Source: Chiloscyllium plagiosum (lineage: Eukaryota). From it: DNA of 64,000 nt. Both the position numbers and the translations under genes were made by a program. How positions within the stretch are numbered: position 1 is the first letter of the stretch; every line of letters starts with the position of its first letter. Below are positions 8,797-55,986 of the stretch, piece by piece. The DNA lies in contig NC_057755.1 in the NCBI RefSeq assembly GCF_004010195.1, positions 11,879,660 through 11,943,659 of the forward strand, written 5' to 3'. The notes below the pieces were generated by a model. It did not search any database and was not told where the DNA came from. It worked only from the letters and a program-made list of their open reading frames with translations.

Positions 8797-8944
8797 CCAA
8801 AAGAGAAAATGCTGGAAAATATCAGCAGGTTTGGCAGCATCTGTAAGGAGAGAAAAGAGCTGACCTTTCGAGTCTAACTGACCCTTTATCAAAGCTTTCT
8901 CTTTTGGTTTCAGATTCCAGCATCTGCAGTAATTTGCTTTTATC
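8797..8944. mobile_element. Short PLE-terminus-derived insertion with 13-bp TSD and a degenerate hammerhead core on the minus strand (8859-8895)
   Basis: tggatgactgact at 8784-8796 and 8945-8957; minus strand reads gct-TTGATAA-a-gggtc-agtta-gactc-GAAA-gg-TC-agc. Confidence 0.65.
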
Positions 8945-9752
8945 TGGATGACTGACTATCTTAATGCTGGTTTAGGTAGTTTCTTGATTGACCAAAAAGT
9001 CAATGTGGAATTGAGGCCACAATTAGATTAGCCATGATTTTCCTCGATAGAAGAGCAGGCTTGTGTGGTTGAAAAACCTACTTCTGTTCCTAATTTATGT
9101 GTACATTGTAGATAGGGAGAATCTGTCTCCACTGACAGGTGAGTTTGTAGTTGAAGGCCACAAATTTAAGATCATTTACAAAAACAAGGCAAGTCAGGGA
9201 AGTGGGAATATGAAAGATTTTTTAAATTGTTTGCCAAACCAGCATTTACTGACCATCCTAATTGCCATTAAAGTGTACCTGAGTGTCTTCTTGACAACCA
9301 GATGTCTTACCAAGCCATTGAAGAGGACAATCAAGAGTCAGCCATATTGCTGAGTGACTGGAGTTGCACATAGTCAAAAAAGGGTATGAATGATAGATTT
9401 CCTTCCAAAAGGACATGAGTGAATCAGATGGTTTTTACAGTAAGTTAGTAATTATGTGGTTACCATTGCTGAGACTAGCTTTTTATTCCTGAAATGCAGT
9501 GCCTGAAAGGATGATGGAAGTAGCTTCAACAGTAACTTTCAGAAAGAAATTGGATAAAAGTATTTATTCACAAGTGTTAAAAGTAAGAAGCACAAATTTC
9601 AGGGCTTAAGAGCAGGGGGAGTGAGACCAAACAGAAAGTTCTTTCAAGGAACTGGAACTGCACAATAGGCTAAATGTCCTGCTGATTTCATAATGTTTCT
9701 CAAGTTAAAGACTACAGAAATGATCATTCCTAAATGTGAGCTTGTTTTCCAG

Positions 9753-9909
9753 GACCCGAGTGAGTTTGGCATCAAATAATTCAATCATTCTGGACAGCTT
9801 GAAGCGGCGGAGTTTGATGCAAAATTATGGAACTTTGAGCAGCACTGGACAGAATGGTGTTTTTTCCCAGCATCCCTTACTGCAGCTCACCCCAGTAATG
9901 AATGTTTGA
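9753..9909 (+). CDS. STOX1: STOX1 terminal coding exon
   Basis: Acceptor cttgttttccag ending at 9752, phase-compatible with the 5121 donor (AG|G = Arg). Translates RTRVSLASNNSIILDSLKRRSLMQ...HPLLQLTPVMNV*, matching the conserved STOX C-terminus. Confidence 0.92.
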
Positions 9910-10004
9910 CTGACCGCTGTGTTGACTGACCCAAGAATGTAAAATGCCAGATTCTTGTGTGTTGTAAATGGTAAATCAATTATGAATTGCACAGCTCTAT
10001 GCAA

Positions 10005-10230
10005 TGAAGACAGAAAAACCAAAAGAACTGTGGATACAGGAAATCCAAAACAAAAGCAGAAATTGCTGTAAAACAAGAATGGCAGAATCTGTGGAGAGAC
10101 ATCAGACTCGATGTTTCCAGTCCAGTGACCCTTAGGACCAGTTCTGAAGAAGGCTCACAGGACCCAAAATATGTCTCCACAGACACTCCCGATCCTGCTG
10201 AAATTTCCAACAATTTCTGTTTGTGTTTAT
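10005..10230. mobile_element. Degenerate inverted-repeat PLE terminal relic in STOX1 3' UTR
   Basis: cagaaattgctg...tctgtggagagac and gtctccacaga...caatttctg are inverted; central ctgaagaagg resembles a hammerhead core. Confidence 0.55.
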
Positions 10231-10535
10231 GAAATCAAATCTTTTATACTAATGGCTTTTGTATTGCTCCCATATACTGACTTTTTTTAGTTAGTTCCTG
10301 GTATATGGGTTTTACTGGTAATGTCAACATTTATTGTCCAATCTTAATTACCCTGATTAGTGGTTTTAGTGTATCTAAGCAATTTGCTGAGCCACTTAAG
10401 GGCAGTAAAGAATCAACCACTTTGTCACGTGTCTGGACCATTCAGTATATTAGTGAAACAAATGGATATTTATGGAAATCCAGTAGCTACATGATCACCG
10501 TTTTGGACTCTGGCTTTTCATTCCAGATTTTATTC

Positions 10536-10699
10536 AATAAATAGAATTTAAATTCCACAGTTGCTAGATTACTGGTCCAGTAATATGTCCACAATGCTTA
10601 TCTCTCCTTTTATATTAGATTTATTTGCAAAACCTATGTATTTTTATATGTTACTAAAAGGGATGTTTGTGCGAAAACATTAAAGCAGATAAAAATAAA
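10536..10699 (+). promoter_or_regulatory. Candidate STOX1 polyadenylation signals
   Basis: AATAAA at 10536-10541 and 10694-10699 downstream of the stop codon. Confidence 0.4.
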
Positions 10700-12269: not shown

Positions 12270-14750
12270 AGGCAGTGTCAGTGGGGAGGCACTTTGTAAC
12301 CAGCAACCATAATTCTATTAGTTTTAAAATAGTGATGGAAAAGGATAGACCGGATCTAAAAGTTGAAGTTCTAAACTGGAGGAAGGCCAATTTTGACGGT
12401 ATTGGCCAAGAACTTTCAAAAGTTTATTGGGGGCAGAAACTCACCGGTAAAGTGACAGCTGGAAAATGGGAAGCCTTCAAAAATTAGATAACAAGAGTCC
12501 AGAGATGGTATGTTCCCTTTAGGGTGAAAGGCAAGGGTGGCAGATGCAGGGAATGCAGAATGATGAGAGAAATTGAGATATTGGTTAAGGAAAAGAAGGA
12601 AGCATATGTCAGGTGCATACAGCAAAGATCAAGTGAGTCCTTAAATGAGTATAAAGGCAGTAGGAATATAATTAAAAGGGAAATCAGGAGGGCAAAAAGG
12701 AACCTGAGGTAGCTTTGGCAAATAGGGTTAAGGAGAATCCAAAGGGATTTTATAAATATATTAAGGACAAAAGGGTAACTAGGGAGAGAATAGGGCTCCT
12801 CAAAGATTAGCGAGGTAGCCTTTGTGTGGAACCGCAGGAGATGGGGGAGATACTAAACAATTTTGCATCAGTATTTACTGTGGAGAAGGATATGGAAGAT
12901 ATAGAATGTGGGGAAATAGCTGGTGACATCTTGAAAAATGTCCCTATTACAGAGGAGGAGCTGCTGGATGTCTTAAAACGCATAGAAGTGGATTACTCCC
13001 CAGGATCTGATCAGGTGTACCCCAGAACTCTGTGGCAAGCTAGGGAAGTGATTGCTGGGCCTCTTTATTTGTGTCATCAATAGTCACGGGTGAGGTGCCA
13101 GAAGACTGGAGAATGGCTAACGTGATGCCACTATTAAAGAAAACTGGTAAGGAAAAGCAGGGGAACTATAGACCAGTGAGCCTGATATCAGTAGTGGACA
13201 AGTTGTTGGAGGGAATCCTGAGGGACAGGATTTACATGTATTTGGAAAGGCAAGGACTGATTAGGGATAGTCAGCATGGCTTTGTGCTTGGGAAATCATG
13301 TTTCACAAACTTGATTGAATTTTTTGAAGAAGTAACAAAGAAGATTGATGAGGGCAGAGTGATGGACATGATCCATATGGACTTCAGTAAGGCATTTGAC
13401 AAGGTTCCTTATGGTAGACTGGTTAGCAAGATTAGATCTCATGGAGTACAGAGAGAACTAGCCATTTGGATACAGAACTGGCTCGAAGGTAGAAGAAGAT
13501 GGTGGTGGATGGCTGTTTTTCAGACTGGAAGCCTGTGACCAGTGATATGCCACAAGGATCAGTGCAGGGTCTACAGTTTTTCATCAATTATATAAATGAT
13601 TTGAATGTGAACACAGGAGGTATAGTTAGTAAGTTTGCAGATGACACCAAAATTGGAGGTGCAATGAACAGCGAAGAAGGTTACCTTCGAGTAAAACGAG
13701 ATCTTAATCAGATGGGCCAATCCGCTGAGGAGTAGCAGATGGACTCTAGTTTAGCTAATTGTGAGGTGCTGCAGTTTGGAAAGTTAAATCAGAGCAGGAC
13801 TTATACGCTTAATAGTAAGGTTCTGGGGAGTGTTGCTCAACAAGGAGACCTTGGAGTGCAGGCTCATAGTTCCTTGAAAGTGGAGTTGCATGTAGATAGG
13901 GTAGTGAAGAAGGTGTTTGGTATGCTCTCCTTTATTGAACAGAGCATTGAGTATAGGAGTTGGAAGGTCATATTGCTGCTGTACAGGACATTGGTTAAGC
14001 CATTTTTGGAATATTGTGTGCAATTCTGGTCTTCCTATCGGATGGAGTTGTGAAACTTGAAAGGGTTCAGAAAAGATTTAGGATGTTGCCAGTGTTGAAG
14101 GATTTGAGCTACAGAGAGAGACTGAATGGGCTAGGGCTGTTTTCCCTGGAGCATCGGGGGCTGAGGGGTGACCTTATAGAGGTTTACAAAATCATGAGGG
14201 GCATGGGTAAATAGACAAGCTCTTTTCCTTGGCGTCAGGGAGTCTAGAACTAGACGGCATAGATTTTGAGTGAGAGGGGAAAGATATAAAAGGGACCTAA
14301 GGGGTTACTTTTTCAGGCAGAGGGTGGTGCATGTATGGAATGAGCTGCCAGAGGAGGTTAGTACAATTGCAGCATTTAAAAGGCATCTGGATGGATATAT
14401 AAAGAGGATGGGTTTAGAGGGATATGGCTGAAACTTTATTGCTGGAACAGCACAGCAGGTCAGGCAGCATCCAGGGAACAGGAGATTCGACGTTTCGGGC
14501 ACAGGCCCTTCTGGCCTGTGCCCGAAACGTCGAATCTCCTGTTCCCTGGATGCTGCCTGACCTGCTGTGCTGTTCCAGCAATAAAGTTTCAGCTTTGATC
14601 TCCAGCATCTGCAGACCTCACTTTCTCCCCTTAGAGGGATATGGGCCAAGTGCTGGCAAATGGGACTAGATTAGGTTAGGATGTCTGGTCGGCATGGACT
14701 AGTTGGACCAAAGGTTCTGTTTCTGTGCTGTACATCTGTGTTACTCCATG
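12270..14750 (+). mobile_element. 5'-truncated CR1 LINE (RT and 3' UTR), frameshifted
   Basis: ORFs 12239-14214 contain [31 protein letters not shown] and LEYCVQFWS. Confidence 0.9.
14428..14630. mobile_element. Palindromic PLE-derived mini-element with 14-bp TSD
   Basis: 81-bp inverted arms 14427-14507 and 14513-14593 with loop cttct; TSD ttagagggatatgg at 14414-14427 and 14631-14644. Confidence 0.85.
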
Positions 14751-15628
14751 CGAACTAATACATTTGGATGCAAGAATCAAGACTGGAAATGTGAAATAAG
14801 ACTGTGAATTCTGCAAACGTCACCTCTAGGTGGTGACAGAGTGGCAGAGCATGTTGTGAAAACGGTTATGGAGTCATATAACATGGAAACAGACCGTTAG
14901 GTCCAACTTGTCCGTGCTGACCATGTAAACTTTGTTATGGACCAGACCAAACTCCTCAAAATATTTTAAGAAGGTAGCCTAGACCTAATTTTTCTTTTTT
15001 AAGGCAAATATAAAGTGCCTTGTTCCAGAGGCAATATGATTGATTCATTAAGCAAAAGAAAAATTTATTTAAAGGCAATAATCAAAATACAAATGAAAGG
15101 AAGAACTTAGAATTGCAACTCTATTGAAAAACTAAACTAAAAAATAGATACAGTAACTGTTACTAATTAACTGTTCAAATATAGTAACATCCCACAACCA
15201 CGCCCCTTGGCAAAAAACACAACTTCAGAAAAATAGATTTGTCTCATAGATAACCCAGCAGCTTCTAGCTGTAACTAAAAAAGGAGGAAAATAGCTTCTA
15301 CTTCCTCAAGATCCCAACTGCTCACAGCTAAAACAAAAAAAATTTAAAAACTAGGAAACCTGGTCTGAGAGAGCTGGCCACAGCCAGCCAGGCTGCCTCC
15401 AATGTTCCAACTTTAAACAAAAATTCCAAGGCCTTACAAGTTGTTTGCTTCCTTACTTGAGAGCCTGACAACCCTCATTCAATCTCTCTTTAAGAAAGAA
15501 AAAGGACAAAAGAACCTGTTAAAACCATAGCATTGTCACATCTCTCCCCTTAAAAAAAAGAACTATCAATGTACAAAGATGACTTCATTTTTAAAAACCC
15601 TTAGTCTTACTCTGTCAGTACACTATAA

Positions 15629-15993
15629 AGTTAAAAATCACACAACACCAGGTTATAGTTCAACAGGTTTAATTGGAAGCACACTAGCTTTTGGAGCGCC
15701 GCTCCTTCATCAGGTGATTGTGATGAATGAGCTGCCAGAGGATGTGGTGGAGGTTAGTACAATTGCAGCATTTAAGAGGCATCTAGATGGGTATATAAAG
15801 AGGAAGGGTTTAGAGGGATATGAGCCAAGTGCTGGCAAATGGGACTAGATTAGGTTAGGATATCTGGTCGGCATGGACGAGTTGGACCAAAGGTTCTGTT
15901 TCTGTGCTGTACATCTCTGTTACTCTATGCGAACTAATACATTTGGTTGCAAGAATGAAGACTGGAAATGTGAAATAAGGCAGCTCAATCAGG
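15629..15993. mobile_element. Composite insertion: PLE terminal repeat with hammerhead plus copy of local sequence, 12-bp TSD
   Basis: agtacactataa at 15617-15628 and 15994-16005; 15725-15979 duplicates 14338-14800 without the palindromic insert. Confidence 0.8.
15682..15716 (-). ncRNA. Minimal hammerhead ribozyme, mutated core (GAAA>AAAA)
   Basis: Minus strand: cac-CTGATGA-a-ggagc-ggc-gctcc-aAAA-gc-TA-gtg. Confidence 0.65.
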
Positions 15994-16455: not shown

Positions 16456-18637
16456 ATACACTCTTTCAATTCAATGGCTGCAATAATAAACCGTATGGAT
16501 TTTTCGTACTCAAATTTCTTCAAAAGCTTTAATGGGTTATGATCAGTATACAAAATTGTCTTAGACACATTGCTGGCAATGTAACAGTTGAAACGTAACG
16601 TCATCACCAAGCTCAAGGTCTCCTCAATCATGGAATATTTCTGTTGATGATCATTCCATTTTCTGGAAAAATACCCAAGAGGACTTTCTAGCTTCCTGTC
16701 ATTTTCTTATAAGAGACCAGCACTAGCATTCCCATCACTTGCATTGATCACTATCTTGAATGGCTTTGGTGTGGCTAACTCTGGAGAAGTGGTCGACTTC
16801 AGGCTATCAAATGGTTTCTGACAGTCTGCCATCTACTGACATTTTCTGTATTTCTTCAATAAGTCAGTCAGTAGACCAACTAAACTGCTAAAATGCAGTA
16901 CGAGCCACAGATAAAACCCACACAATTCCCAGGAATTGTATTACAACCCTCTTCATTGATGGCATGGGAAACTCCCCAATAAACATTGTTTTCACATCCT
17001 GTGGAGTCATCTGGCCATGCTTAGGCTTTTGCAAACTCAATCTTAGCCAAGTTTATCATGAAGTCTGCTTCTCAAAGACAACTGAACAATTCAGATAGAT
17101 GGCTGCTCTTATGAACCAGGCCAGACCCCCTCAAACAATTCAAGAAAGTAGCCCAGACCTTAACTTTGCTAGTTATTTTAAGCAGGTGTACGGCAGATAT
17201 TCCAAGAGTGATGCAACTGGTCAAACCATTTAGTTCTAATCAAAACAATTTATTTACAAGATTATCGAATGAAACACAAACAAAACTGTTGTGAAGGTGT
17301 AGGTCTGTACTGTACCTTTAAGAGAGACTGGAAGCTGGCACGGACTTAGAGAGGCACAAAATGTGCTGAAAGAATTTAAAATGTAACATTTGACTGTGAA
17401 ACCAAGTGTGCAGATGTGTTGCCATGATACAAAAACAAATTCAAATTCAGTCAGTCAGTTAAAATCTTTGCCCCAGATAAAAAATTCAAATCAAATTTTA
17501 ATTTAATATTTTGATTACATCAAACCAATGAAATGGCTTGGGGTATAAAGTTGTACATTTTGAACAGTTTGAAGGAGAACTACCAAGAAAACCAACAAGT
17601 ATAGACTGCTAGCTGAAAGGTATCTGTTCATATGAAAGATCTGAGAAGCAGAATACTGAAGAAAAGACAACAGAGGAAAATCTACAGAGAAAGATACAAA
17701 GAAAAGGTACGGTAGCTGGCTGGTTTTGAAATATGAACGTTTTTTGTAAATCTTAATCGGGTTTTTATCGGACCAGTATTATGGAGTGGGAAGGTAAAAA
17801 GAGAAAGGAGTTGTAAATAGAAATAACATTGTTAATTTTTTCTTTAAATAGTGACATTTGGGATAGTTCTTTGCCGCGCGAAATTTAACAGATTATGGCA
17901 TGATATCAACTTTTCTGTGTGTCTGGTTTAAATTAGCAGAAGGGTTACGTGTTGTAACAGTTCAGGGGCTCATCACTGGGATTTGAACAGTTTGGGTCTT
18001 GAATTTGTGGTTTGAACAGGTTTAGATAGATACAGTCTGAGATTTGGACACATTTGATTAGATTTGGAGTACAAAAAAGCCCAGTAGATTTAAACACTTG
18101 CAGGTTAGTGTCCTGGATCTTTAAATAAAATGTAGGTGAGACAATGTGTTTAATTTTGGTGACTTATGGTTGGTTAATTTAAAAATAAGAGAAATGGCTA
18201 TTAAAGTTGCTAAACAGGTTCTGGGGTTTGAAGATGATTCTCAAATTTGCCAAGAAAGTTTAGAAGGAGAGTAAAAAGCCATACTTTTAGAATTAGCAAA
18301 GCAGTTAGGTTTGAGTTTACCGAAGGACAAAAGTAAAGCTGAAATTGTAAGGGAATTACTCAAACACTTTGGTGTGTCAGAGAAACAGGCAAGTGCAGTA
18401 GAGTTAGAAAAACTTAAATTACAATTGAGGAAAATGGAGTTAGAAGATAAACACAGAGAGAAGAAAGAGCAAGAGAGAAAAGAGAGAGAGAGAGGAAAAG
18501 AAAGAGAGAGGTTCTTAGCTGAGCAGAAAAAAATTGAACTTGAGAAATTGTGACTTAGTCAGCAAAGTCAAGTTAACAGGATGGAGATTAAAAGAGAAGG
18601 TAGTGATAAATACAAATATGTCAAAACTCTGCCACAC

Positions 18638-22200: not shown

Positions 22201-23643
22201 GTTTGATGTAATGGTGCAGGAAAAACATGAACAGGCAGAGGGTCAGACAGAAATGTTTCGTCCTGAAAGGCTAAGGGACCTGCAACAGAAAAACAAGACA
22301 ATTATATATATGTGTATATATAGATGCATACTCTGAAAAGGAGGTAGAGAATATTCCTGAAAGATAGAATCCTAAGACGGAAATGGAAACCACAGCAAGT
22401 TAGTGCAGAGGAGAAATGGGATGAAGTGCACCAGATTGTGTTGCTGGTAGCACATGAACTATGTGTAGGAGGTCACCTAGGGGTACGAAAGACTCAGGCT
22501 AAGGTACAAAAACATTTTTCCTGGCCTGGAATGCACAAGGATGTGGTTAACTTTTTCCATATGTGTCATACGTACCAAATGCACAGGCGGTAATAAACCT
22601 AGTACCTTTGTTGCCAATTCCCACATTCAAAGAACCCTCCATGTAGATTATAATTGATTATGTAGGTTCCCTCCCAAGAACTAAAAGTGGTAACCAGTAC
22701 TTGTTAACCGAATGCATGTGTCTCCCAGATTTCCAGAGGCAATTCCATTATGGAGTATTAAGGCAAAAACGGTGGTAGAGGAGTTAGTAGCTTTCTTTAC
22801 GCAGTAGGGCTACCCAGAGAGATCCAGTTGGACCACAGAACTAATTTTACTGCTAGGCTGTTTAAGGAGGTCATGGGCAACTTAGGTACAGCACTTTAAA
22901 TCAAGTGCGTATCATCCTGAATCCCAGGGAGCTTTAGGAAGGTGGCATCAGACCTTGAAGAACATATTGTTAGGATTATCCGATTGATTGGGATAAAGGT
23001 ATCCCATTCGTATTGTTTGCCATTAGAGATGTCCCAAACGAGTCTACTCAGTTCACTCGCTTCGAGTTAATATTTGGGCACGAAGTAAGAGGCCCTTTGA
23101 AATTAATTAAAGAGAAATTGACAGGACCAAAATCAGATATCTCACACTTGGATTATGTATCAGAGGTGAAGGAGTGATTAAATCGAGTAGGTGAATTAGC
23201 TAAACAGCACTTGAAGAGGGCACAGCATAGAATGAAGCAGGTGGCAGATTAAAAATTCTGAGACTCATACGTTTCCCCAAGGGGATGACGTATTAGTACT
23301 GTTGCCAGTGATAGGAGACCATTTCAAAACCAGGTTTAGTGGTCCCTATCAAATTTAGAAAAAGCTGAGTCAGGTGAACTATCTGGTAAAGATGCCAGAT
23401 AGAAAATAACTGTATCAGGTATGTCATGGACACGTTGAAACAGTATTATACCAGAGAGAAAGAACTGGAGAAACAGGTGTTAGTTACTGCCTTGCAGAGT
23501 GAGGAATCAAATCCAGATGGTGTGGATTTTGATATGCCTCAAAATATGTTAAAAAGTAACATATCTGAGTAAACTATCTGACTCAGGAGCACAGAACATA
23601 GTTGAAAGTTTTGTTACTGTAGTATAAGAATGTATGTATTAGT

Positions 23644-24997: not shown

Positions 24998-25152
24998 TGG
25001 AGAAAGTGAGGATTGCAGATGTTGGAGGTCAGAGTTGAGAGTGTGATGCTGGGAAAGTGCTGGAATACTAGTGAACTGCTTATGCCAGAAACGTCAATTC
25101 TCCTGCTCTTATGCTGCCTGACCTGCTTTGCTTTCCTAGCACCACACTCTCA
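24998..25152. mobile_element. Degenerate inverted PLE terminal relic
   Basis: ggagaaagtgagg...gagagtgtgatgctgg and gcaccacactctc inverted arms; gaaacgtc present. Confidence 0.6.
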
Positions 25153-27159: not shown

Positions 27160-27318
27160 GAAAGCAGGAGACAACAGCTTCGCTTCACTTGGAGGTCGCC
27201 ACTGATGATGTTACCTAGCCAGGTAATGAAACGTCTGGATATCAAACCTACAGCTCAGCGAGCAAACCTACATCCTAAACCTCAACCTGAGCTACAAACC
27301 TTCACAAACCCTGCGAAT
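27160..27318 (+). mobile_element. PLE terminal repeat fragment
   Basis: cagctcagcgagcaaacctacatcc matches the end of the PLE at ~46083-46107. Confidence 0.75.
27199..27238 (+). ncRNA. Minimal type I hammerhead ribozyme, intact core
   Basis: cca-CTGATGA-t-gttacct-agcc-aggtaat-GAAA-cg-TC-tgg: stem I cca/tgg, 7-bp stem II, palindromic ACGT stem III; predicted cleavage after C27235. Confidence 0.8.
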
Positions 27319-29062: not shown

Positions 29063-29940
29063 AATTTGGAGATACCGGTGTTGGACTGGGGTGTACAAAG
29101 TTAAAAATCACACAACACCAGGTACTCATGTGACTCAGCCAATGTTGTCTATCTTATACGTTGCAGGCCAGGATGCCCGGAGGCATGGTACATTGGGGAA
29201 ACCGAGCAAAGGCTACGACAACGGATGAATGGGCACCGCACAACAATCAACAGACAGGAGGGTTCCCTCCCAGTTGGGGAACACTTCAGTGGTCCAGGAC
29301 ATTCAGGCTCGGACCTTCGGGTGACCATCCTCCAAGGTGGACTTCGGGACAGGCAGCAGAGGAAAGTGGCCGAGCAGAGGCTGATAGCAAAGTTCGGTAA
29401 CCATAGGGAGGGCCTCAACCGGGACTTTGGGTTCATGCCACATTACAGGTGATCACCATTGCACTACACACACACAGATATTCCTACACACACATTCTCA
29501 CATACACACGGACACAGGTACACACAGACGCGCACACAGACACCCACACTCACACATGCACCCCCTCACAGACTTAAGACACTCTGCACTCAAAAAGGAG
29601 CTGGCAGACAAAGGGATTGTAGATAGTAGGTCAGGAAAGAAAAATAACTTAGGTGGAAATGGGGACTGTGAGTGGGTGAAAATGGGTTGGCTGTGCTAAA
29701 AGCAAAAGGTTTTGTGATTTACACATGAAAGAAGTGAAACTATCACTGTATTCTAACAGATGAAAGGCTTAACAGACAATCAATTTTCAATGTATAATTT
29801 CAGTTCCATCACACTGCAAATTTTTGCTATAAATTCTGTGTTACGATCGAGCCCTCCACTATCACCTGATGAAGGAGCATCGCTCCGAAAGCTAGTGTGC
29901 TTCCAATTAAACCTGTTGGACTATAACCTGGTGTTGTGTC
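29063..29940 (+). mobile_element. 5'-truncated Penelope-like element (GIY-YIG endonuclease and terminal repeat) with inverted 5' terminal piece
   Basis: Reads YSCDSANVVYLIRC...WYIGETEQRLRQRMNGHR (GIY-YIG); acacaacaccagg at ~29110 is inverted at cctggtgttgtgt ~29927. Confidence 0.85.
29863..29897 (+). ncRNA. Minimal type I hammerhead ribozyme, intact core
   Basis: cac-CTGATGA-a-ggagc-atc-gctcc-GAAA-gc-TA-gtg; predicted cleavage after A29894. Confidence 0.8.
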
Positions 29941-32835: not shown

Positions 32836-33812
32836 GAGAAAGTGAGGACTACAGATGCTGGAGATCAAAGTCAAAGAGAGTGATGCTGGAAAAGCACAGC
32901 CAGTCAGACAGTTCTGAGGAGTAGGAGAATCAACTTTTCAAGCAGAAGCTCTTCATCAGGAATGAGACTTGTAGTCCAACGGGTTTGAGAGATAAATGGG
33001 AGGAGGGTGGGACTGAAGGATGGTAGCTGGCAATGTGATAGGGAGATGAAGGTGGGGGGGTGAAAGCAATAGGTCAGAGAGGAGGGTGGAGCAGATAGGT
33101 GGGAAGGAAGATGAACAGGTAGGACAGGTCATGAGGGCAGTGGCAAATTGGAAAGTTGGCTCTGGATAAGGTGGGTGGAAGGAAATGAAGAAACTAGTGA
33201 AATCCATATTAATCCCGCATGTTGGAGGGTCCCAATGCGGAAGATGAGGTGTTCTTCCTCCAGGCATCAGGTGGTTAGGGTTTGGGGGTGGAGGAGGCCC
33301 AGGACATGTTTGTCCTTGGCGGAGTGGGAGGGGCAGTTAAAACGCTCAGCCACAGGCAGTGGGTTGTTTAGTGCGTGTGTCCCAGAGATGTTCTCTGAAA
33401 TGCTCTGCAAGTTGGTATCTTGTCTCCCCAATGAAGAGGAAACCACATCGGGAGCAATGGATACAGTAGATGATGTGTGAAAGTGCAAGGAAATCTGTGT
33501 CAGATATGGAAGGCTCCTTTGCTCTGTCAGAGATTAACCTGTACTTCCACACACTTCATCTACTGTGTCCGTTGCTCCCGATGTCCCACCTGTCCATCTT
33601 CCTTAACACCTATCTGCTCTATCCGTCTCTCCAACCAATCACCTTCACCCCACCTTTGTCTAACTATCGTATTTCCAGGTACCTTCCCCCCAAACCTACC
33701 CCCTCCCATTTTACTCTCAGCCCCCTTGGCTCACAAGGCTCATTCCTGATGAAGGGCTTATGCTTGAAACATCGATTCTCCTGCTCCTCGGATGTTGTCT
33801 GACTGGCTTTTC
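32836..33812. mobile_element. Inverted PLE fragment (GIY-YIG plus two terminal repeats), 11-bp TSD
   Basis: TSD attaggagtag at 32825-32835 and 33813-33823; minus strand HIIYCIHCSRCGFLFIGETRYQLAEHFREH; hammerhead cores at 32928-32963 (-) and 33743-33776 (+). Confidence 0.85.
33743..33776 (+). ncRNA. Minimal hammerhead-like core, partly decayed
   Basis: ttc-CTGATGA-a-gggc-ttat-gctt-GAAA-ca-TC-gat. Confidence 0.6.
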
Positions 33813-35024
33813 ATTAGGAGTAGTCAGCATGGCTTTGAGCATGGGAGATCCTGCCTCACAAATTTGTTCGAGTTCTTTGATAAAGTGACCAGGAAGATTG
33901 ACAAGGGCAGTAAGGCCTTTGACAAGGTTCCACATGGTGAGCTACTCTGGAAGGCTAGATCGAATCCAGGGGGAGCTGGCAAATTGGATACACAATTGGT
34001 TTGATGATAGGAAGCAGAGGGGAATTGAGTTTTGAGAAGATTGTAGCTCAGGTTAAAGTTCTGGATGTAGGATTGCTTGCTGAGCTGGAATGTTCATTTT
34101 CAAACGTTTCGTCACCATAACATCATCGGTGAGCTTCCAGATGAAGCACTGCTGGTATGGCCTGCTTTCTAATTAAGTGTTTGGGTTTTCTTGGGTTGGT
34201 GATGTCATTCCTTGTGGTGATATCATTTCCTGTTCTTTTTCTCAGGGGTGGTAAATGGGATCCAAGTCAATGTGTTTGTTGATAGAGTTCTGGTTGGAAT
34301 ACCATGCTTATAGGAATTCTTGTGCATATTTCTGTTTGGCTTGTCCTAGGATGGATATGTTGTCCCAGTGAAAGTGGTGTTCTTCTTCATCTCTATGTAA
34401 GGATGCTAGTGAGAGTGGGTCATGTCATTTTGTGGCTAGTTGATGTTCATGTATCCTGGTGGCTAGTTTTCTGTCTATTTGTCCAATGTGTTGTTTTGTC
34501 CAAAATTCACAAACCAGGAGCTCCCCTCAGACCAATAGTCTCACTACCTGGAATACCAACTTTCAGATTGGCCAAAGAACTACACCAAAGACTATAACAC
34601 TTTGTAGAAGCCTCCATGTGTGTGTTTCAGCGGCAGCAGCAACTTGAAGGGTGGGAGCTTGGACCAGGGGCCTGTCGGGAATGGTGAGTCACTGATTTGA
34701 ACCTTTAAAAAATTCCCTGAAGCGCGGGAGTCCTCCATTTCTGTTTTTCAGCAGCAGCAGCAATTTGAAGGGTGGGAGCTTGGACCAGGGGCTTGCCGGG
34801 AGCGGTGAGTCACTGATTTGAGCTTTTATATTTGAAGTCAGAGAGCAGAGGTTTCTGGGAAAGGAGGGACTACTTATTTTTATTTCCATCCAGCTATATA
34901 AGTCAGTGTTTTCTCCACCTGAGACCCTCCCTTTGTAGGGCCTCCAGTCCAACCGCCTCGTCTAACCTCAAAGACCAGGGTCCCATCAGGTAAGCTTTAC
35001 TTTGTGATAAGGGGACTAGCAGGG

Positions 35025-43702: not shown

Positions 43703-46636
43703 CCAGGATGATTAGATTTGTCAAGCCCTGGGCCCTGGAGGGGGTCTCCCAAGTTAATACAGGTATATATACAATGCTCCCGTTCCTTTGTTTGGGAGCT
43801 TTGCGCCGAGCATAGCTGTTCTGTATTTTGTGCATTTTTTTTTGGTTTGTTTTTTGCTTTTCTTTTTTTTGGTGTTGCTTTGCATAGTGTTAGGGTTTGC
43901 TTTATATTATAGGGTAGGTTAGTAGTTAGTAGATAGTAGTTGTATTGTAATTTGTGTTTTTTTTCTTTTTATTATACTGATATTTGTTATTGTTTTTTTT
44001 TCCATTAATTTTATATGCTTGTAAAGTTAAAAAAAATTGCTAATAAATATAGTTACAAAAATAAAGAAGGCACACGGTGTGTTAGGTTTCATTCAGAGAG
44101 GAATTGAGTTCCGGAGGCGCAATATCATGCTGCCACTATACAAAACGCTAGTGCGGCCACACTTGGAATATGGAGTACAGTTCTGGTCGCCATATTTCGG
44201 GAAGGATGTGGAAGCATTGGAAAAGGTGCAGAGGAGATTTACCAGGATGTTGCCTGGTCTGGAGGGAAGGTCTTATGAGAAAAGGCTGGGAGACTTCGGG
44301 CTGTTCTCATTGGAAAGAAGGCTAAGAGAGGATTTGATAGAGACATATGAGATGATCAGAGGATTAGATAGGGTAGATAGTGAAAGTCTTTTTCCTAGGA
44401 TGATGGCGTCAACTTGTACGAGGGGCCATAACTACAAATTGAGGGGTGATAGATTTAAAACAGATGTCAGAGGCAGGTTCTTTACACAAAGAGTGGTAAG
44501 GGTGTGGAATGCCCTACCTGCCAAAGTAGTCAACTCAGCCACATTAGGGAGATTTAAACAATCCTTAGATAAGCACATGAATGATGATGGGATAGTGTAG
44601 GGGAGGGCGAGCTGAGAATAGTTCACAGGTCAGCGCAACATTGAGGGCCGAAGGGCCTGTTCTGCGCTGTATTGTTCTATGTTCTATGTTCTAAGACTCA
44701 CGCCACTCCATCCACTCCACCCAAGAATTCCTGAAGACCATCAAAGACACCAAAATATAAGAAGATGGAGTAATTGTGTCTTTTGACGTAACAGCCCTAT
44801 TCACATTCATCAATATCAACCTGGCCAAGGAAACACTGACTACATTATTAGAAGAACCAAAGGCACATACACCAAACACCACCAATTGATCAGCAAGGAC
44901 AATGTCTTGAAGCTAGTGGACCTATGCCTTACCACCCACTTCACCTTCAACAACAAAACCTACAGACAAACCAATGGAGCACCAATGGAATCTCCGATAT
45001 CAGGGTTCTTAGCAGACGCAGTAATGCAGAGACTCAAATAACCAGCTCTGCCAACCCTCCAACCCAAACTTTGGATTCCCTATGTGGACGATACCTTTGT
45101 CATCACTAAATGAAACAATTTAGAGGAAACCCTCAAGACCATTAATGGCACAAAATTCACTAAAGAGGATGAAAACAACAGACTGCCATTCCTAGATGTT
45201 GCAGTAGAGCAAACAGCCAATGGGGAACTTCAAACCAGTGTTTACAGGAAAACAACACATACTGACCAAATACAGAAGCAATCATCCCAACACCCACAAA
45301 CAGAGCTGCATCAGAACCTTATTTCAATGAGCCACCACTCACTGCAGCTCAGAGGAAAATCACCTACAGAGTGTATTCAAAAAGAACAGGTACCCAATGA
45401 ACACAGTCCACTGATTCCTCAAGAACAAACCCAAATAAGCAGAAAAAATGCACCCAGAAACTCTAGCCACTCTCCTCTACATCAAAGACATCTTGGAAAT
45501 GACTGCCAGACTACTCTGACCTCTTGGCACCATGGTAGCGCACAAACCCACCAACACATAAAAATAGCAGCTAATGAATTTGAAAGACCCTATACAGATA
45601 ACAAGCAAAACTAATGTCATTTACAAAATACCATACAAGAAATGTAACAAACACTACATTGGACCAACATGCAGAAAACTAGCCTCCAGGATACATGAAC
45701 ATCAACTAGCCACAAAAATACATAACCCATTCTCACCAGTATCCTTACATATAGATGAGGAAGGATACCATTTCTACTGGGACAACACATCCATCCTAGG
45801 ACAAGCCAAACAGAGACATGCACGAGAATTCCTAGAAGCATGGCATTCCAACGGGAACTCTATCAACAAACACATTGACTTGGATCCCATTTGCCATCCC
45901 TGAGAAAAAGAACAGGAAATGACATCACCACAGGAAATGATGCCATCACAGGGAATGACATCACCAACCCAAGAAAACCTAAACACATAAATAGAAAGCA
46001 GGTCATATCAGCAGTGCTTCATCTGGTAGCTCATTGATGATGTTACCTAGAAATTTGGTGAAATGTCTGAAAACGAACCTTCCAGCTCAGTGAGCAAACC
46101 TACATCCATCAGAGGGTAATAGTGGAAGGATACTTGTTGGACTGGAGGCCTGTGATTAGTGGAGTGCCTCAGGGGTCGGTGAGGGGCCCATTACTGTTTG
46201 TTATCGAAATCAATGATTTGGATGAGAGTGTTCAAGGCATGATTATGTTTGCAGATGACACTTTAAAATAAGCGGTATCGTGGACAGTGAGGAAGGTTCT
46301 CAGACCTCGATCAACTGGGGAAGTGAGCTGGGAAATGGCAAATGGAATTTCATATAGATAAGTGTGATGGCTTGCATTTTAGAAAGTCAAATCAAGGTAG
46401 GAGTTTCATGGTGAATGGTAGGGCCTTAAGGAGTGCAGTGGAACAGAGAGACCTTGGAGTTCAGGTAACGGTTCTCTGAAAGTGGAGTCACAGGTAGACA
46501 GGGCAGGGAAGAAGGCTTTTGGCACACTGGCCTTCATCAGCCAGGGCATTGAGTATAAAAGTTGGGAAGTTATGTTGCAGTTATGTAGGATATTGGTAAG
46601 GCTGCACTTGGAGTTCAGTTTTGGTCACTTTTTTTT

Positions 46637-48765: not shown

Positions 48766-48864
48766 CCATATTGTGAAGGTGCAAGTGTTGCACTGGGGTG
48801 GACAAAGTTAAAAATCGCACAACACCATTTTGGAATATAACTTGGTGTTTGTGTGATTTGTAAC
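48766..48864. mobile_element. Tiny hairpin PLE-terminus insertion with 9-bp TSD
   Basis: aatagtcac at 48757-48765 and 48865-48873; gttaaaaatcgcacaacacca and tggtgtttgtgtgatttgtaac are inverted. Confidence 0.65.
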
Positions 48865-49116
48865 AATAGTCACTTTCTAAACATAGACTGGGTCTGCCAA
48901 AGTGCTAAGGGATCAGATGGGAAGGAATTTGTTAAGTGTGTATAAGACTCTTTCTTATTCAGTATGTGGATGTACCTATGAGAGATGGAGCAAAACTTGA
49001 CTTTCTCTTGGGAAATAAGGCAGGGCAGGTGACTGAGGTGTCTTTGCACTTTGGGGCAAAGTTATCATAATTCTATTAGTTTTAAAATAAGGTCAGAAGT
49101 CACATGGAAGTGACAC

Positions 49117-49154
49117 TTTACCTGATGAAGGAGCAGCACTCCGAAAGCTTGTGA
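49117..49154 (+). ncRNA. Minimal hammerhead ribozyme in a short PLE terminal insertion (~49090-49241)
   Basis: ttac-CTGATGA-a-ggag-cagca-ctcc-GAAA-gc-TT-gtga, enclosed by the inverted repeat aaggtcagaagtcacatg / catgtgacttctgacctt. Confidence 0.7.
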
Positions 49155-50282
49155 CCTCGAATAAACCTGTTGGATTATAAGCTGGCATCATGTGACTTCT
49201 GACCTTGTCTACCCAAGTCTAACACCAGTATCTCCACATTGTAGTTATAAAATAGAAATGGATAAAGATAGACCTGATCTAAAATTTAAAGTTCTAACTC
49301 TAAGGAAGGTCAATTTTGACAGTATTTAGGAAGAACTTTCAAAAGTTGATGGGGGCAGGGGGTGTGGATATTTGCAGATAAAGGGATGGCTGGAAAGTGA
49401 GAAGCTTTTAAAAATGAGATAATGAGAGTCTAGGGACTATATATCAAGCGTAAGATGGGCAGATGTAGGAAACGCTGGATAACTCGAGGAATTGAGGTCC
49501 TGGTCAAAAAAAAGAAGCAAGCATATGTGAGGTATAGACAGCAGGGATTGTGTGAATCCTGCAAGGAGTATAAGGGTAGTAGGAGTATATTAGGAAGGAA
49601 TTCACAAGGGCAAAAAGGGGACATGAGATAGTTTTGGCAAATAGGGTTAAGGAGAATCCAAAGGACTTCTACAAATACATTAAGAAGAAAAGAAAAACTA
49701 GGGAGACAATGAGGCCTCTTAAATGTCACCAAGGCTGACTATGTGTGGAATCACAGGCATTGGTTGAAATATTAATGAGTATTTTGCTGTGAGAGGGATA
49801 CGGAAGCTGGAGAGCTCGGGGAAATAAATTGCAACATTTTGAAAAGAGTCTATATTACAGAGAAGAAGTGTTGGATGTCTTAAAAAGATGGACAAATCTC
49901 TGGGACCAGATCAGGTGTACCCTAGAACTTAATGGGAAACGAGGGAAGTGATTACTGGGACCTTTGCTAGGATATTTGTATCATCGATGGCCACAGGTGG
50001 GGCACCAGAAGACTGCAGGTTGGTTAACGTGGTGTCACTCTTTAAGAAAGGTGGTAAGGAAAAGCCAGAGAACTATAAATCGGTGAGCCCGACATCTATG
50101 GTGGGCAGGTTGTTGAAAGGGATACCAAGGGACAGGGTTTACATTTATTTGGAAAGGCAACAACTGATTAGGGATAGTCAACATTGTTGTGTGTATGGGA
50201 AATCGTGTCTCACTAACTTTATTGAATTTTTTGAAGACATGATGAAGAGGATTAATGAAGGTAGAGCGATGGACATCATCTA

Positions 50283-51742
50283 CATGACGAGAACGAGGGT
50301 AGGTCCGATCAAGGAGAGTAGTGGGAGGCTGTGTATTGAGTCGGAATAGATAGGAGAGGTCTTGAATGAGTACTTTTCTTCAGTATTTACGAATGAGAGG
50401 AACCATATTGTTGAAGAGGAGAGTGTGAAACGGACTGGTAATCTAGAGGAAATACATGTTAGGAAGGAAGATGTGTTGGACATTTTGAACAACTTGAGGA
50501 TAGACAAGTCCCCCAGGCCTGATGGGATATATCCTAGGATTATGTGGGAAGCAAGAGAGGAAATTGCAGTACCGTTGGCAATGATCTTTTCATCTTCACT
50601 GTCAACGGGGGTGGTACCAGGGACTGGAGAGTGGCGAATGTTGTACCCCTGTTCAAAAAAGGGAATAGGGATAACCCCAGGAATTACAGGCCAGTTAGTC
50701 TTACTTCGGTGATAGGTAAAGTAATGGAAAGGGTACTGAGGGATAGGATTTACGAGTATCTGGAAAGACACTGCTTGATTAGGGACAGCCAGCACGGATT
50801 TGTGAAGGGCAGGTCTTGCCTTACAAGTCTTATTGAATTCTTCGAGGAGGTGACCAAGCATGTGGATGAAGGTAGAGCAGTGGATGTAGTGTCAGACTTG
50901 GTCATTGCACGGTGAACCATAGGGCCAAGTTCTTTAGCATGGTGAGGCGGGTAAACTTTTGGAATGATATGAGGTGCTGATTGCTTCCATAGATGAAGAG
51001 ATATTTCCGCCTCCCCTTCTGGACCAATGACATGGGCCAAATTCTGCACAGTTCATTTGGTTCCAATTAAATAAATTTTAAAATTTCAAGAATTTTATCC
51101 TGGTCTGTTCGGACATAAGCAAGAGTATTGTGGTCCCCAGAGTTTTTGGTATTAATATCAAGTGACCACCACTGTGGTTCAGTGGATACATACTGCTGAC
51201 GTTCGTATGAATCAGAATCAAGCTGGACACCATCAGGGGAACATGCAAGTTTTACTTGAAAGGAAGACAGCAAATCTCGTCCCATCAAGTTGCATGATAT
51301 TTTGTTTGTAATTACAAAACGATGAGACAGGGAATAACCTTGAAAATAAACAGCAACAGGTTGAGAAAGTGGATATTTTTTGCTCTCTCTATGTAGACCA
51401 GACAAACTCTTTGTTTGTATTGAAATTGGCAAGTCTTTGTCAGATCTTACAGAAGACATTGAAGCTCCTGTGTCAATTAAAAAAGGATACCATTTGTTGT
51501 TAACTTTGAGTACGACTATAGGTTCCTGCTTAAAAGACGCGACACGTCTACCCAGAGAGTGGTGGGGGCATAGAATGCGCTGTCTTTGGGAGTGGCAGAG
51601 TCAGAATCATTGGCGAACTTTAAGTGGCAATTGGATAGGTACATGGATGGGTGCTTAAGCTAGGACAAATGTTCGGCACAACATCGTGGGCCGAAGGGCC
51701 TGTTCTGTGCTGTATTGTTCTATGTTCTATGTTCTATGTTCT
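50283..51742 (+). mobile_element. Young CR1 whose central RT segment is replaced by a retroviral fragment
   Basis: CR1 at 50283-50892 and 51549-51742 with (ttctatg)n tail; same family as 1-530 and 52900-54325. Confidence 0.85.
50893..51548 (-). pseudogene. Retroviral pol fragment: aspartic protease plus putative 2H-phosphoesterase-like domain
   Basis: Minus strand KQEPIVVLKVNNKWYPFLIDTGASMS (DTG 51466-51474) and NLMGRDLL (GRD 51274-51282), then GDHNTLAY, VIGPEG and SAPHII...AKELGPMV. Confidence 0.8.
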
Positions 51743-52439: not shown

Positions 52440-52765
52440 CAGTGTGGAAACAGGTCATTTGGCCCAACAAATACACACTGATGCTCCAAAGAGTAACCCA
52501 CGCAGACCCATTCCCCTACCCTATTGCTCTACATTTCTCTTGACTAGTGCACCTAAGCTACACATCCCTGAACACTATGGGCAATTTAATATGCCAATTC
52601 ACCTAGTCCACACATGTTTGGATTGTAGGCAGAGCACTTGGAGTAAAGCCATGCAGATACAGGGAGAATGTGCAAACTCAACACAGTCGCGTTGGGCTAG
52701 AATTGAACCCAGGTCCCTGGTTCTGTGAGACAGTAGTGCTAACCACTGAGCCATCATGCTGCCCC
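52440..52765 (-). mobile_element. HE1-like SINE
   Basis: Reverse-complement head gtgctaaccactgagccatcatgctgccc. Confidence 0.8.
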
Positions 52766-52899
52766 AAAACAGTTACATCCATTTACACAGATGTTGCCAG
52801 GATTGGAGGGTTTGAATTATAGGGAGAGTCTAAATAGGCTGGGGCTTTTTTTCTCTGGAGCGTCAGAGACTGAGGGATGACCTTATTGAGCTTTATAAG

Positions 52900-54325
52900 T
52901 ATGAAACGAACTGGTAAGCTAGAGGAGATACTTGTTAGGAAGGAAAATGTATTGGCATTTTGAAAAACTTGAGGATAGACAAGTCCCCCAGGCCTGACGG
53001 GATATATCCTAGGATTATGTGGGAAGCAAAAGAGGAAATTGCAGAACCGTTGGCAATGATCTTTTCGTCTTCACTGTCAACGGAGGTGGTACCAGGGGAC
53101 TGGAGAGTGGCGAATGTTGTGCCCCTGTTCAAAAAAGGGAATAGGGATAACCCCGGGAATTACAGGCCAGTTAGTCTTACTTCGGTGGTAGGCAAAGTAA
53201 TGGAAAGGATACTGAGGGATNNNNNNNNNNNNNNNNNNNNNNNNNNNNNNNNNNNNNNNNNNNGGGAAATTTGGCCGGTTGGATAGAAAACTGGCTAACC
53301 GGTCGAAGTCAGAGAGTGGTGATAGATGGTAAATATTCAGTCTGGAGCCCAGTTACAAGTGGAGTTCCGCAGGGATCAGTTCTGGGTCCTTGCTGTTTGT
53401 AATTTTTATTAATGACTTGGATGAGGGAGTCGAAGGGTGGGTCAGTAAATTTGCAGATGATACGAAGATTGGTGGAGTTGTGGATAGTGAGGAGGGCTGT
53501 TGTCGGCTGCAAAGGCACTTAGATATGATGCAGAGCTGGGCTGAGGAGTGGCAGATGGAGTTCAATCCTGCCAAGTGTGAGGTTGTCCATTTTGGAAGGA
53601 TAAATAAGAATGCGGAATACAGGGTTAACGGTAGGGTTCTTAGTAAGGTGGAGGAGTAGAGGGATCTTGGGGTCTATGTTCATAGATCTTTGAAAGTAGC
53701 CACTCAGGTGGATAAAGCTTGTAAGGAGACCTATGGTGTATTAGCGTTCATTAGCAGAGGGATTGAATTCAAGAGTTGTGAGGTGATGTTGCAGCTGTAC
53801 AGGACCTTGGTTAGGCCACATTTGGAGTACTGTGTGTAGTTCTGGTCGCTTCATTTTAGGAAGGATGTGGAAGCTTTGGAGAGGGTGCAGAGGAGATTTA
53901 CCAGGATATTGCCTGGAATGGAGAATAGGTCGTATGAGGATAGGTTGAGAGTGCTAGGCCTTTTCTCATTGGAACGGAGAAGGATGAGGGGTGACTCGAT
54001 AAAGGTTTATAAGATGATCAGGGGAATAGATAGAGTAGACAGTCAGAGACTTTTTCCCCGGGTACAACAGAGTGTTACAAGGGGACATAAATTTAAGGTG
54101 AAGGGTGGAAGGTATAGGGGGGATGTCAGGGATAGGTTCTTTACCCAGAGAGTGGGGGGGGCATGGAATGCACAGCCTGTGGGAGTGGCAGAGTCAGAAT
54201 CATTGGTGACCTTTAAGCGGTACATGGATAGGTGCTTAAGCTAGGACAAATGTTCGGCACAACATCGTGGGCCGAAGGGCCTGTTCTGTGCTGTATTGTT
54301 CTATGGTCTATGTTCTATGTTCTAT
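52900..54325 (+). mobile_element. Young 5'-truncated CR1 spanning an assembly gap
   Basis: DKSPRPDGIYPR, NYRPVSL, KFADDTK; (ttctatg)n tail. Confidence 0.88.
53221..53263. other. Assembly gap (43 N)
   Basis: Run of N. Confidence 1.
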
Positions 54326-55768
54326 AATCATAAGGGACATGGATAGGGTGAATAGTCAAGGTCTTTTCCCTAGGATGGGGAAGTCTAAATCTAGAGGGCA
54401 TTAATCTAAGGTGAGTAGGTAAAGATTTAATCAGGACCTAAGGGGCAACTTTTTCATGCAGAAACTGGTGCTTGTATTGAATGACCAATCAGAGGAAGTG
54501 CTGGAGGTTTGTACAATTACAACATTTAAAAGGCATTTGGGTGGGTACATGAATAGGTTTAGAGAGATAAGGGCCAAATGCTGTCAAATGGGACTAGAAT
54601 AATTTAGGATACCTGGCTGGCATGGACGAGTTGGACCAAAGAGTCTTTCTTCGTGCTGTACATTCTATTGATTCTAACTGCTGACAGTGACTAGTTTCTT
54701 TGTTAAGCTATTACTTGTCCTGCACTCATTAAGATTTTAACCTGGAGTGCTGCTTCTAACTGTTGTTCCTTGCATGAATTCATGCACACTAACCCTCCGA
54801 AAAGCATCCCACCCAGACCCAAACCCCTACCCTACCCCTGTAACCCTGCATCTAACAATCATATAATTGATTAGTTTTGTATGACATAAGTTTATTTGAC
54901 TTCCTATGTAACACCAATTGTAAACACTCCAGAATGATGTCTAACTTCATCGTTCATGTGACTAACAACTAACTTGGGAGCAAATGAAGATTTTGGACTA
55001 AAGGGGCAGCCCCCTCATGGACATGAAATTTACTGAGTGATAGATTAATAATTAACAGATGTTTTTAAGACTTGAGACAGGTTCACAGTGGAGTTTCCCA
55101 GGGACTGATTTTGGGAGCTCTGATCTTCCTGCTATAATTATTGATCTAAACTTGGTGTGCCAGGCACAATGTCTAAGTTTGCAACTGACACTGAACTTGG
55201 AAATATTGTGAACTGTGAGGAAAATAGTCAAAAATTTCAAAAGGAAGTAGTCACGTTGGTGAACTAGGAGAAAATCGCAGATGCAATTTAATTCAGAGAA
55301 TTGTGAAGTGATTGTTTTGGTAGGAACAGCATGGAGTGACCATATACAATAAAAGATACAATTGTAAAGCAGATTCAGCAGCAGAGGAACATGATTGTAC
55401 ATAAAATCACTGAATGTTAAGGACAAGTTGACAGAGCAATGATTGGAGCATATTGGGCTTAATTGATAAGGATGTATACTACTTTCTTGCCCTCAAAATC
55501 TGAACCTTGTATAATTGGTTTGACCTCCAATCAAAGTATTGCATCCACTCTGGCTGCCATACTTTTGGAATGATATCAAGGCATTGAAGAGAGTACAAAA
55601 CATATTCATGACATTGATTCATGATTGAGGAACTTCAGTTATTGATTGGAGATGTGACAGAGTCCTATAAATTATGAGAAGTCTGGAAAGGGAGAAATTC
55701 TTCCTATTGGTGAAAGATCATTAATGAGAAGACACAGTATTAAGGTAACAGGCAAAAGTGAAACAAAG

Positions 55769-55986
55769 ATGGAAATGTGTTGCTGGAAAAGCGCAGCAGG
55801 TCAGGCAGCATCTAGGGAACAGGAGAATCGACGTTTCGGGCACTAGCCCTTCTTCAGTTCCTGAAGAAGGGCTAATGCCCGAAACGTCGATTCTCCTGTT
55901 CCCTAGATGCTGCCTGACCTGCTGCGCTTTTCCAGCAACACATTTCCATCTCTGATCTCCAGCATCTGCAGACCTCACTTTCTCCT
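55769..55986. mobile_element. Palindromic PLE-derived mini-element with hammerhead cores on both strands, 15-bp TSD
   Basis: 91-bp arms 55767-55857 and 55861-55951 (one mismatch), loop ttc; TSD aaaagtgaaacaaag at 55754-55768 and 55987-56001. Confidence 0.88.
55858..55891 (+). ncRNA. Minimal hammerhead ribozyme core (mirror core on the minus strand at ~55827-55860)
   Basis: ttc-CTGAAGA-a-gggc-taat-gccc-GAAA-cg-TC-gat; stem I is weak (2 bp). Confidence 0.7.

Follow-up and report, generated by a model that had tools for sequence, protein, structure and literature searches.

A stretch of 64,000 nucleotides from the genome of the bamboo shark Chiloscyllium plagiosum (contig NC_057755.1, positions 11,879,660 to 11,943,659, referred to below as the window) contains a series of short hammerhead ribozyme motifs. 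These are very probably minimal type I hammerheads carried in the terminal repeats of four families of Penelope-like elements (PLEs), brought in by 5'-truncated insertions and likely to be catalytically silent where they now lie. Ten motifs had been listed in a sequence-only reading of this DNA, at 27199, 29863, 33743, 46031, 49118 and 55858 on the plus strand and at 8859, 15682, 32928 and 34100 on the minus strand, and all ten were found in these places and in the form described when the sequence of the window was checked. The core CUGANGA...GAAA...UH is perfect and in type I order in six of them (27199, 29863, 49118, 55858, 33743 and 32928) and carries one or two changes in the remaining four. 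In every motif, positions 9 and 10.1 are separated by an extra base and G10.1 is kept; its partner is C in six cases and U in four. Helix III is reduced to a palindrome at 15.2/16.2, which reads ACGU or AGCU in six motifs and is broken in four decayed copies. The predicted cut sites, C27235 and A29894, had been placed correctly.

A strict descriptor (perfect CUGANGA, GAAA and UH, with stems I and II of at least 3 bp each) matched the window three times (27199, 29863 and 49118), against two matches in total over 60 dinucleotide shuffles of the window (mean 0.033, maximum 1). Four motifs had been called intact; three of these pass the strict descriptor, but the fourth, at 55858, has a stem I of only 2 bp followed by a U-U mismatch, despite its perfect core and 4-bp stem II. 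A 191-bp palindrome is centred on this motif, which makes up its right arm, and RNA running through it is predicted to fold into one long hairpin, with a stem II probability of 0 when 30 nt of flank are included. Altogether, 7 of the 10 listed motifs have a defect in the core, stem III or stem I, or are concealed in a fold-back. Because the motifs at 32928(-) and 33743(+) are the two arms of a single insertion bounded by one 11-bp target-site duplication, the ten motifs represent nine insertions. A reading of the list as ten independent intact ribozymes was rejected. Searches of the window with each copy also brought up motifs not listed before: another full core, at 55857(-), as well as partial remnants near 14510 (both strands), 25072(+), 2549(-), 6104(-), 2699(+) and 8390(-).

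Judged from sequence, the motifs share all the defining features of the minimal hammerheads (min-HHRs) described in the pseudo-long terminal repeats (pLTRs) of metazoan PLEs by Cervera and de la Pena in 2014 (PMC4209133), a kind known since that year. In the portion of that paper available, the likeness covers the type I fold, CUGANGA with its extra base, a stem II starting at G10.1, the palindromic 15.2/16.2 (ACGU, AGCU) and a stem I of 2-4 bp, together with the presence of several families per genome, mostly as solo copies of truncated elements, and of some opposite-strand pairs 100-700 bp apart. There are three differences. The host here is a shark, whereas the chordate rows examined from the published alignment hold no cartilaginous fish; the density extrapolated here lies above the published counts, from a selected window; and no mention was found, in the same portion of the paper (PMC4209133), of a poly(A) site in use 30 nt downstream of the cut. 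A literature search on sharks with these hammerheads found nothing relevant in the partial texts it reached, apart from one chondrichthyan in a 2026 retrozyme survey.

Pairing in the stems was compared across families. The MAFFT alignment of all ten motifs set family A one column off, and pairs were therefore counted by anchoring on the core, as well as on the seven rows of families B, C and D. With core anchoring, 74 of 80 stem cells are paired (shuffle mean 43.3, maximum 57, with 0 of 10,000 shuffles as high), as are 30 of 32 when one copy per family is kept (shuffle mean 18.0, maximum 28); these shuffle counts are not probabilities, as copies and families are related. Six of the seven stem I/II positions show three or four different Watson-Crick pairs, with G10.1 invariant, and 89% of cells are paired in the seven B, C and D rows compared with 21-45% in slid controls. 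When a model was built from those seven rows, the three family A motifs kept out of it came up 9th, 11th and 13th out of 25 (E 0.007, 0.05 and 0.71), a recovery helped by the shared core. Within families, only two double changes preserve a pair (stem I.3 in family B and stem II.2 in family C), and the differences are mostly transitions, many of them at CpG. Since the stems covary between families and mostly decay within them, selection appears to have acted on the parent lineages, whereas the window copies look like neutral decay and are probably relics for the most part.

Penelope-like coding remnants lie directly upstream of the hammerheads in families A, B and C (profile E 1e-53, 3e-31, 6e-23 and 3e-4). 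The GIY-YIG remnants were missed by a Pfam scan of the window but recognised by a purpose-built endonuclease profile made from 21 of 24 chosen homologues of families A and B. By the evidence of sequence, the motifs are minimal type I hammerheads in PLE terminal repeats, and the sequence-only reading stands in this respect, as it does on cross-family stem covariation and on the number of families, put there at a minimum of three and found here to be four. Family A is marked by stem II GGAGC/GCUCC and palindrome AGCU, family B by a GUUAC stem and ACGU, and family C by GGGC/GCCC and ACGU; the motif at 8859(-) represents the fourth family, D, the 3' flank of which is related to that of family C. 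The best match to the family A endonuclease remnant (29123-29449) is a Chiloscyllium punctatum protein, 93% identical over the whole query, and most named matches are from sharks. Its close homologues P0001 and P0003 (93% and 80% identical) contain a reverse transcriptase, a DKG motif, a CX4CxxC linker and GIY-YIG, and show the features of Neptune/Nematis elements (a CX2-5CxxC linker, a C-terminal GIY-YIG with CCHH, and DKG); in the window, the truncation of the copy falls after the linker. A cysteine linker combined with DKG is the pattern given for Neptune/Nematis PLEs in the relevant section of PMC8557442, and family A is assigned to this type by the motifs of its homologues. In family B the cysteine linker between reverse transcriptase and GIY-YIG is absent from both the window remnant and homologues P0047, P0049 and P0054, an absence by which this family is assigned to the Penelope/Poseidon type. 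The short family C endonuclease remnant is the one with E 3e-4 against the profile of A and B homologues.

At the family B motif 27199, stem II begins at an ATG (27208) from which a frame of 41 codons runs; the copy at 46031 shares this frame up to a stop. The frame of the Poseidon element PAc of Anolis carolinensis likewise starts at stem II, and family B further resembles PAc in having two alternative end points of its copies, about 30-40 nt apart (the tail), and in the use of uncut RNA as template, according to the part of Frangieh et al. (2024) available (PMC11167929). By comparison with PAc, the window has no full-length active copy, the cut lies 28 nt from the ATG rather than 26, and families A and C carry stops in the stem II frame. 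The family A DNA pattern had no match in viral contigs, and a metagenome scan gave 2 weak loci at 39% identity out of 376 stretches. Pieces of PLE endonuclease were also seen as alternative ends in shark gene models P0002, P0018, P0019, P0050, P0055, P0056, P0058, P0060 and P0061, which are ordinary genes (PPP1R12A-like, XRCC5, septin 5, MAP3K7 and others) containing exonised repeats or annotation artefacts.

Six insertions have target-site duplications of 6-15 bp and an inverted arm, most of them with a tail of 30-45 bp on one arm only. The insertion signature reported for PLEs consists of 5' truncation, an adjacent inverted truncated copy, a tail of 30-40 bp and duplications of variable length (Craig et al. 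2021, PMC8557442, in the portion available), and the duplications, inverted arms and one-sided tails seen here therefore carry the known Penelope-like signature; the window differs from the endonuclease-positive units of that study in having no partial tandem (pLTR-open reading frame-pLTR). In family A, the insertion 29064..29939(+) comprises an inverted 60-bp tail arm (29064-29123, minus strand), the GIY-YIG remnant (29123-29449), a 3' untranslated region and the intact hammerhead 29863..29897 (3-bp stem I, 5-bp stem II, AGCU, predicted cut after A29894); it splits a short interspersed element (SINE) and is flanked by a CACATA duplication (29058-29063 and 29940-29945). The shorter insertion 49090..49241(+) has a 17-bp inverted arm, the hammerhead 49118-49154 (perfect core, 4-bp stems I and II, U at cut position 49150), a tail and a 13-bp duplication with one mismatch, and the short copy 15621..15722(-) holds the hammerhead 15682-15716, in which GAAA has become AAAA with loss of G12. 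In family B, the Poseidon-type hammerhead 27199..27238(+) is intact, with a 3-bp stem I, a 7-bp stem II, an ACGU palindrome and a predicted cut after C27235, and is carried on a solo repeat end at about 27150-27308(+). The remnant 44694..46108(+), whose start is approximate, retains a broken reverse transcriptase (about 44892-45296), a GIY-YIG endonuclease (45601-45897) and a decayed hammerhead (46031-46070; C3 to U, palindrome lost), and the remnant 34031..34496(-) a broken endonuclease (34493-34245) and the hammerhead 34100-34132 (U4 to C, stem II shortened).

Family C is represented by fold-back and two-armed insertions. In 55769..55986, the left arm (55769-55857, minus strand) begins at C3 of a full core and is without stem I, and the right arm begins at 55858, 3 nt before C3, with its cut position at 55888; a 33-bp tail is found on the right only, and the duplication is of 15 bp (55754-55768 and 55987-56001). 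The inverted two-arm insertion 32836..33812 carries hammerheads at 32929-32962(-) and 33743-33776(+), in neither of which the stem III palindrome is intact, and an endonuclease remnant at 33480-33367(-), between copies of its 11-bp duplication (32825-32835 and 33813-33823). A fold-back insertion not listed before, 14428..14630, has both arms beginning within the hammerhead and a 14-bp duplication, and in the remnant 2419..2549(-) the hammerhead is badly decayed. The family D insertion 8797..8944(-), antisense in the last intron of a Storkhead-box gene, has an inverted tail arm, a decayed hammerhead (8859-8895, two core changes) and a 13-bp duplication. More remnants lie at 2699-2787(+), 8337-8390(-), 6012-6104(-), 24999-25154 (two arms) and 48767-48856.

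Several properties bear on whether the copies could cut where they lie. A loop of 2 nt is unable to close helix III, so a partner strand is needed. The nearest partner of the same family and strand is 18.8-22.9 kb away, or there is none in the window, which leaves no dimer in cis, and opposite-strand arms are unable to pair in dimer fashion within one RNA. The palindrome duplex is predicted to be worth only -1.7 or -2.5 kcal/mol, the active-like dimer was predicted to be less stable than two folded monomers in all four cases, and with 30 nt of flank only one of four motifs (27199) is predicted to keep stems I and II (P 0.5-1.0). In the published work available, a single min-HHR did not cleave and dimers cleaved poorly (PMC4209133); the PAc hammerhead cleaves with protein and is dispensable for insertion in vitro, and no RNA ends were reported at its cut site in vivo in Anolis (PMC11167929).

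RNA evidence was drawn from sequencing reads. Four of 24 sequencing runs were compared with positions 27100-29960 of the window at 85% likeness, with reads deriving from many genomic copies, and all RNA figures come from one poly(A) single-cell run, X22 (about 2% read), of a shark that carries family A and may be of a different species from that of the window. In X22, 4,477 reads matched this interval; the sister run X23 contributed none. With a first mate on the minus strand taken as plus-strand RNA, an orientation confirmed by poly(A) tails, hammerhead-strand reads outnumber opposite-strand reads by 882 to 118 and 873 to 194 on the two sides of A29894 in family A and by 101 to 21 in family B, a bias of 4.5- to 12-fold in both families tested. 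Poly(A) is entered by 978 reads, 441 after 29923 and 537 after 29926, and 249 instead read on into the tail of the family at 29939. The poly(A) sites follow the hexamer ATTAAA (29906-29911, plus strand) by 12-15 nt and the predicted cut A29894 by about 30 nt, with GU/U-rich and not A-rich DNA beyond, and AATAAA or ATTAAA is present in all four family A copies that cover the site. This looks like a genuine polyadenylation site at the level of the family, with the caveats that it is seen in one run, possibly skewed to few loci, and that some copies may have genomic A-runs. What is new here is that family A has a poly(A) site in use some 30 nt downstream of its cut site, preceded by a conserved AAUAAA/AUUAAA; no report of polyadenylation at a PLE hammerhead was found in a literature search, outside of which most subscription papers fell. 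A possible sign of skew to few loci is an insertion at 29749, which 19% of RNA reads carry but which makes up 0.1% of DNA depth, the two coming from different organisms. About 100 bp at 29596-29700 in the family A 3' untranslated region is non-family sequence that almost no family reads cover. Both points at which genomic copies of the element end lie downstream of the poly(A) sites in the 29906-29939 region, so the polyadenylated RNA cannot be the template for copies ending at 29939 or later.

That many solo copies are cut in the cell, as trans dimers or with the aid of protein, and act on host RNA, in family A by removing the poly(A) tail, is quite unlikely. Partners for such cutting exist, as both tested families occur in poly(A) RNA with their strand bias, and the position of the poly(A) site, the stems kept in context by 27199 and the cleavage of the PAc hammerhead once protein is added (PMC11167929, as far as available) all favour it; it is disfavoured by the weakness of the 4-bp palindrome duplexes and by the damage or concealment of seven of the ten listed copies. 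Read depth in X22 is flat across A29894 (882 versus 873), and without a step or a pile-up of ends an uncut RNA pool exists. Nor do ends pile up at C27235 or A29894, a weak test in a poly(A)-primed library nearly blind to cut products, and reads ending at the site are likewise missing from the Anolis data given in PMC11167929. Contigs also show loose ends at 29897, whose most likely source is a subfamily with a 2-nt indel and not cleavage.

The geometry of family A suggests a concrete role in tail removal. In the rodent Clec2 3' untranslated region, a hammerhead cuts between the stop codon and the polyadenylation signal, the same arrangement as in family A, and since the cut precedes the signal, cleavage would strip the tail (PMC6765202, in the passages available). 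The Clec2 ribozyme is split, single-copy, domesticated and active, whereas the family A hammerhead, known from its sequence, is of the minimal kind and sits in a mobile repeat. It is conceivable, though unlikely, that family A is a mobile cassette of hammerhead plus poly(A) site, whereby transcripts of the element, or of host genes whose ends fall in one of its many copies, are polyadenylated 30 nt after the cut and lose the tail through protein-assisted or dimer cleavage. In that case RNA stability would be under a Clec2-like switch spread by a transposon, and the genome, with intact hammerheads on the order of 1e5, might be the densest in them known among vertebrates. An alternative role would be a choice between a polyadenylated message and a longer read-through RNA that templates copies ending at 29939 or beyond.

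Several points weigh against silent PLE relics as the account of these motifs. Inertness is likely by prediction and analogy, and the nearest-neighbour energies behind it ignore tertiary contacts and protein help. Dimers may form between separate transcripts, given this many copies, and Lunse et al. are said in a review to have obtained dimer cleavage of such motifs. A 3'-tag library would mostly lose the cut product of about 30 nt and so gives no cleaved fraction, and its reads come from many genomic copies of an organism that is possibly not the window's species. As to the carriers, the clade names are taken from motifs and not from a tree, the family C remnant had no database homologue in a weak search, and family D has no coding remnant in the window and is tied to PLEs only by the likeness of its flank to that of family C.

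Under the favoured reading of the motifs as PLE relics, the hammerhead would have been kept by selection in the parent elements, as the stems covarying between families indicate, and the parent RNA would be cut only as a dimer through the 4-nt palindrome or with the protein of the element, as may be expected from the available parts of PMC4209133 and PMC11167929. Reverse transcription would start close to the repeat's 3' end and in most cases stop early, so that the hammerhead region would be copied most often. Every copy with a whole motif would have come from RNA uncut at that motif, and inserted copies would then decay neutrally, largely through CpG change; the decay itself is seen in the copies. 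In family A, cleavage about 30 nt before the used poly(A) site is predicted to strip the tail.

Most copies are 100-220 bp long and have no coding part, as would be the case for a separate non-autonomous family, retrozyme or SINE-like, spreading by its own hammerhead-cut RNA circle. Non-LTR (long terminal repeat) retrozymes have been described in one chondrichthyan and go back to PLE repeats (bioRxiv 10.64898/2026.07.22.740005), and in the portions available they resemble the present motifs in their dimer-requiring type I hammerhead, very high copy number and link to PLE repeats (PMC7229834; bioRxiv 10.64898/2026.07.22.740005). They are however built of tandem 170-400 nt units with canonical hammerheads and form RNA circles (PMC7229834), whereas the window has no tandem units: none of its 11 tandem-array rows holds a hammerhead, and the nearest same-family, same-strand copy is at least 18.8 kb off, on which grounds this reading was rejected. 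The short copies also share sequence with copies joined to endonuclease remnants and have variable starts, inverted arms and tails. Of the six with a recognisable core, five have their start inside the motif or no more than 15 nt ahead of C3, and the sixth starts some 50 nt ahead of it; a start at the cut site is not seen in any, which suggests that their templates were uncut there. A retrozyme origin is accordingly very unlikely.

The idea that the motif only resembles a hammerhead, by chance or as a side product of coding or promoter sequence, has next to no probability and was rejected, as it is already largely refuted by the shuffles (3 strict matches against 0.033 expected) by covariation (the varied pairs at six of seven positions, the slid controls and the recovery of held-out family A) and by agreement with the consensus in the available part of PMC4209133, even though the motif is short, overlaps a reading frame in family B, has folding z-scores (0.01, -1.09 and -2.32) that are unremarkable in two of three copies, and is absent from the 7 matches of an Rfam scan of the window at E<=10, which shows only that minimal forms fall outside the Rfam models.

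The density of about one motif per 6 kb noted earlier holds when all motifs are counted, whereas strictly intact motifs occur once per 21 kb. Three intact motifs in 64 kb correspond to 47 per Mb (95% interval 10-137), which for a bamboo shark genome of about 4.7 Gb (C-value 4.83-4.96 pg) extrapolates to about 2.2e5 intact motifs (4.5e4-6.4e5), an estimate biased upward because it comes from one window picked for its motifs. Published counts are about 4,000 minimal hammerheads in coelacanth and about 9,000 in Xenopus (PMC4209133, available part), with 126,247 canonical motifs in axolotl (excerpts of PMC7229834 and bioRxiv 10.64898/2026.07.22.740005). In DNA run X1, summed contig depth, which is not copy number, reaches 1.4-3.4 million in hammerhead bins, 2.1-2.3 million in SINE bins and 80-420 in quiet bins; the hammerhead repeat is of the same order as the neighbouring SINE, which fits a very common repeat. 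The very large ribozyme population proposed earlier is thus plausible as a count of genomic motifs; as one of working ribozymes it is not supported, given the seven defective or hidden motifs, the lack of tandem partners and, as a weak test, the missing pile-up of RNA ends at both named cut sites. The number of PLE hammerheads in shark genomes may greatly exceed that in the genomes for which counts exist, and such density would offer good ground for a statistical test of cutting in vivo.

The Storkhead-box gene, which we take to be STOX1-like, contributes its last two exons to the window (2835-5121 and 9753-9909, plus strand). Four of the five remnants in its introns are antisense, too few to interpret. 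Besides these exons, the window is dense in fragments of long interspersed elements (LINEs) and other repeats. A long LINE remnant of CR1/L2-like type (34923-38354), the first frame of which resembles a GDSL esterase, adjoins a second of another type (38330-42629), presumably L1/Tx1-like from its motifs. An open frame at 51070-51600(-) with a retroviral-type aspartyl protease domain (E 2e-10) lies amid LINE fragments, and 43 N at 53221-53263, an assembly gap, separate LINE piece 52898-53220 from what follows, this piece being 94% alike to that at 50422-50744. Direct repeats of about 400 bp, 83% alike (56839-57241 and 61866-62268), flank broken RNase H/integrase frames and a frame at 61003-61353, and the whole (56839-62268) looks like a decayed LTR retroelement or provirus. 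A direct repeat pair of about 700 bp (17289-17959 and 25510-26213, 80%) and an older inverted pair (22439-23162 and 27320-27983, 68%) were also seen.

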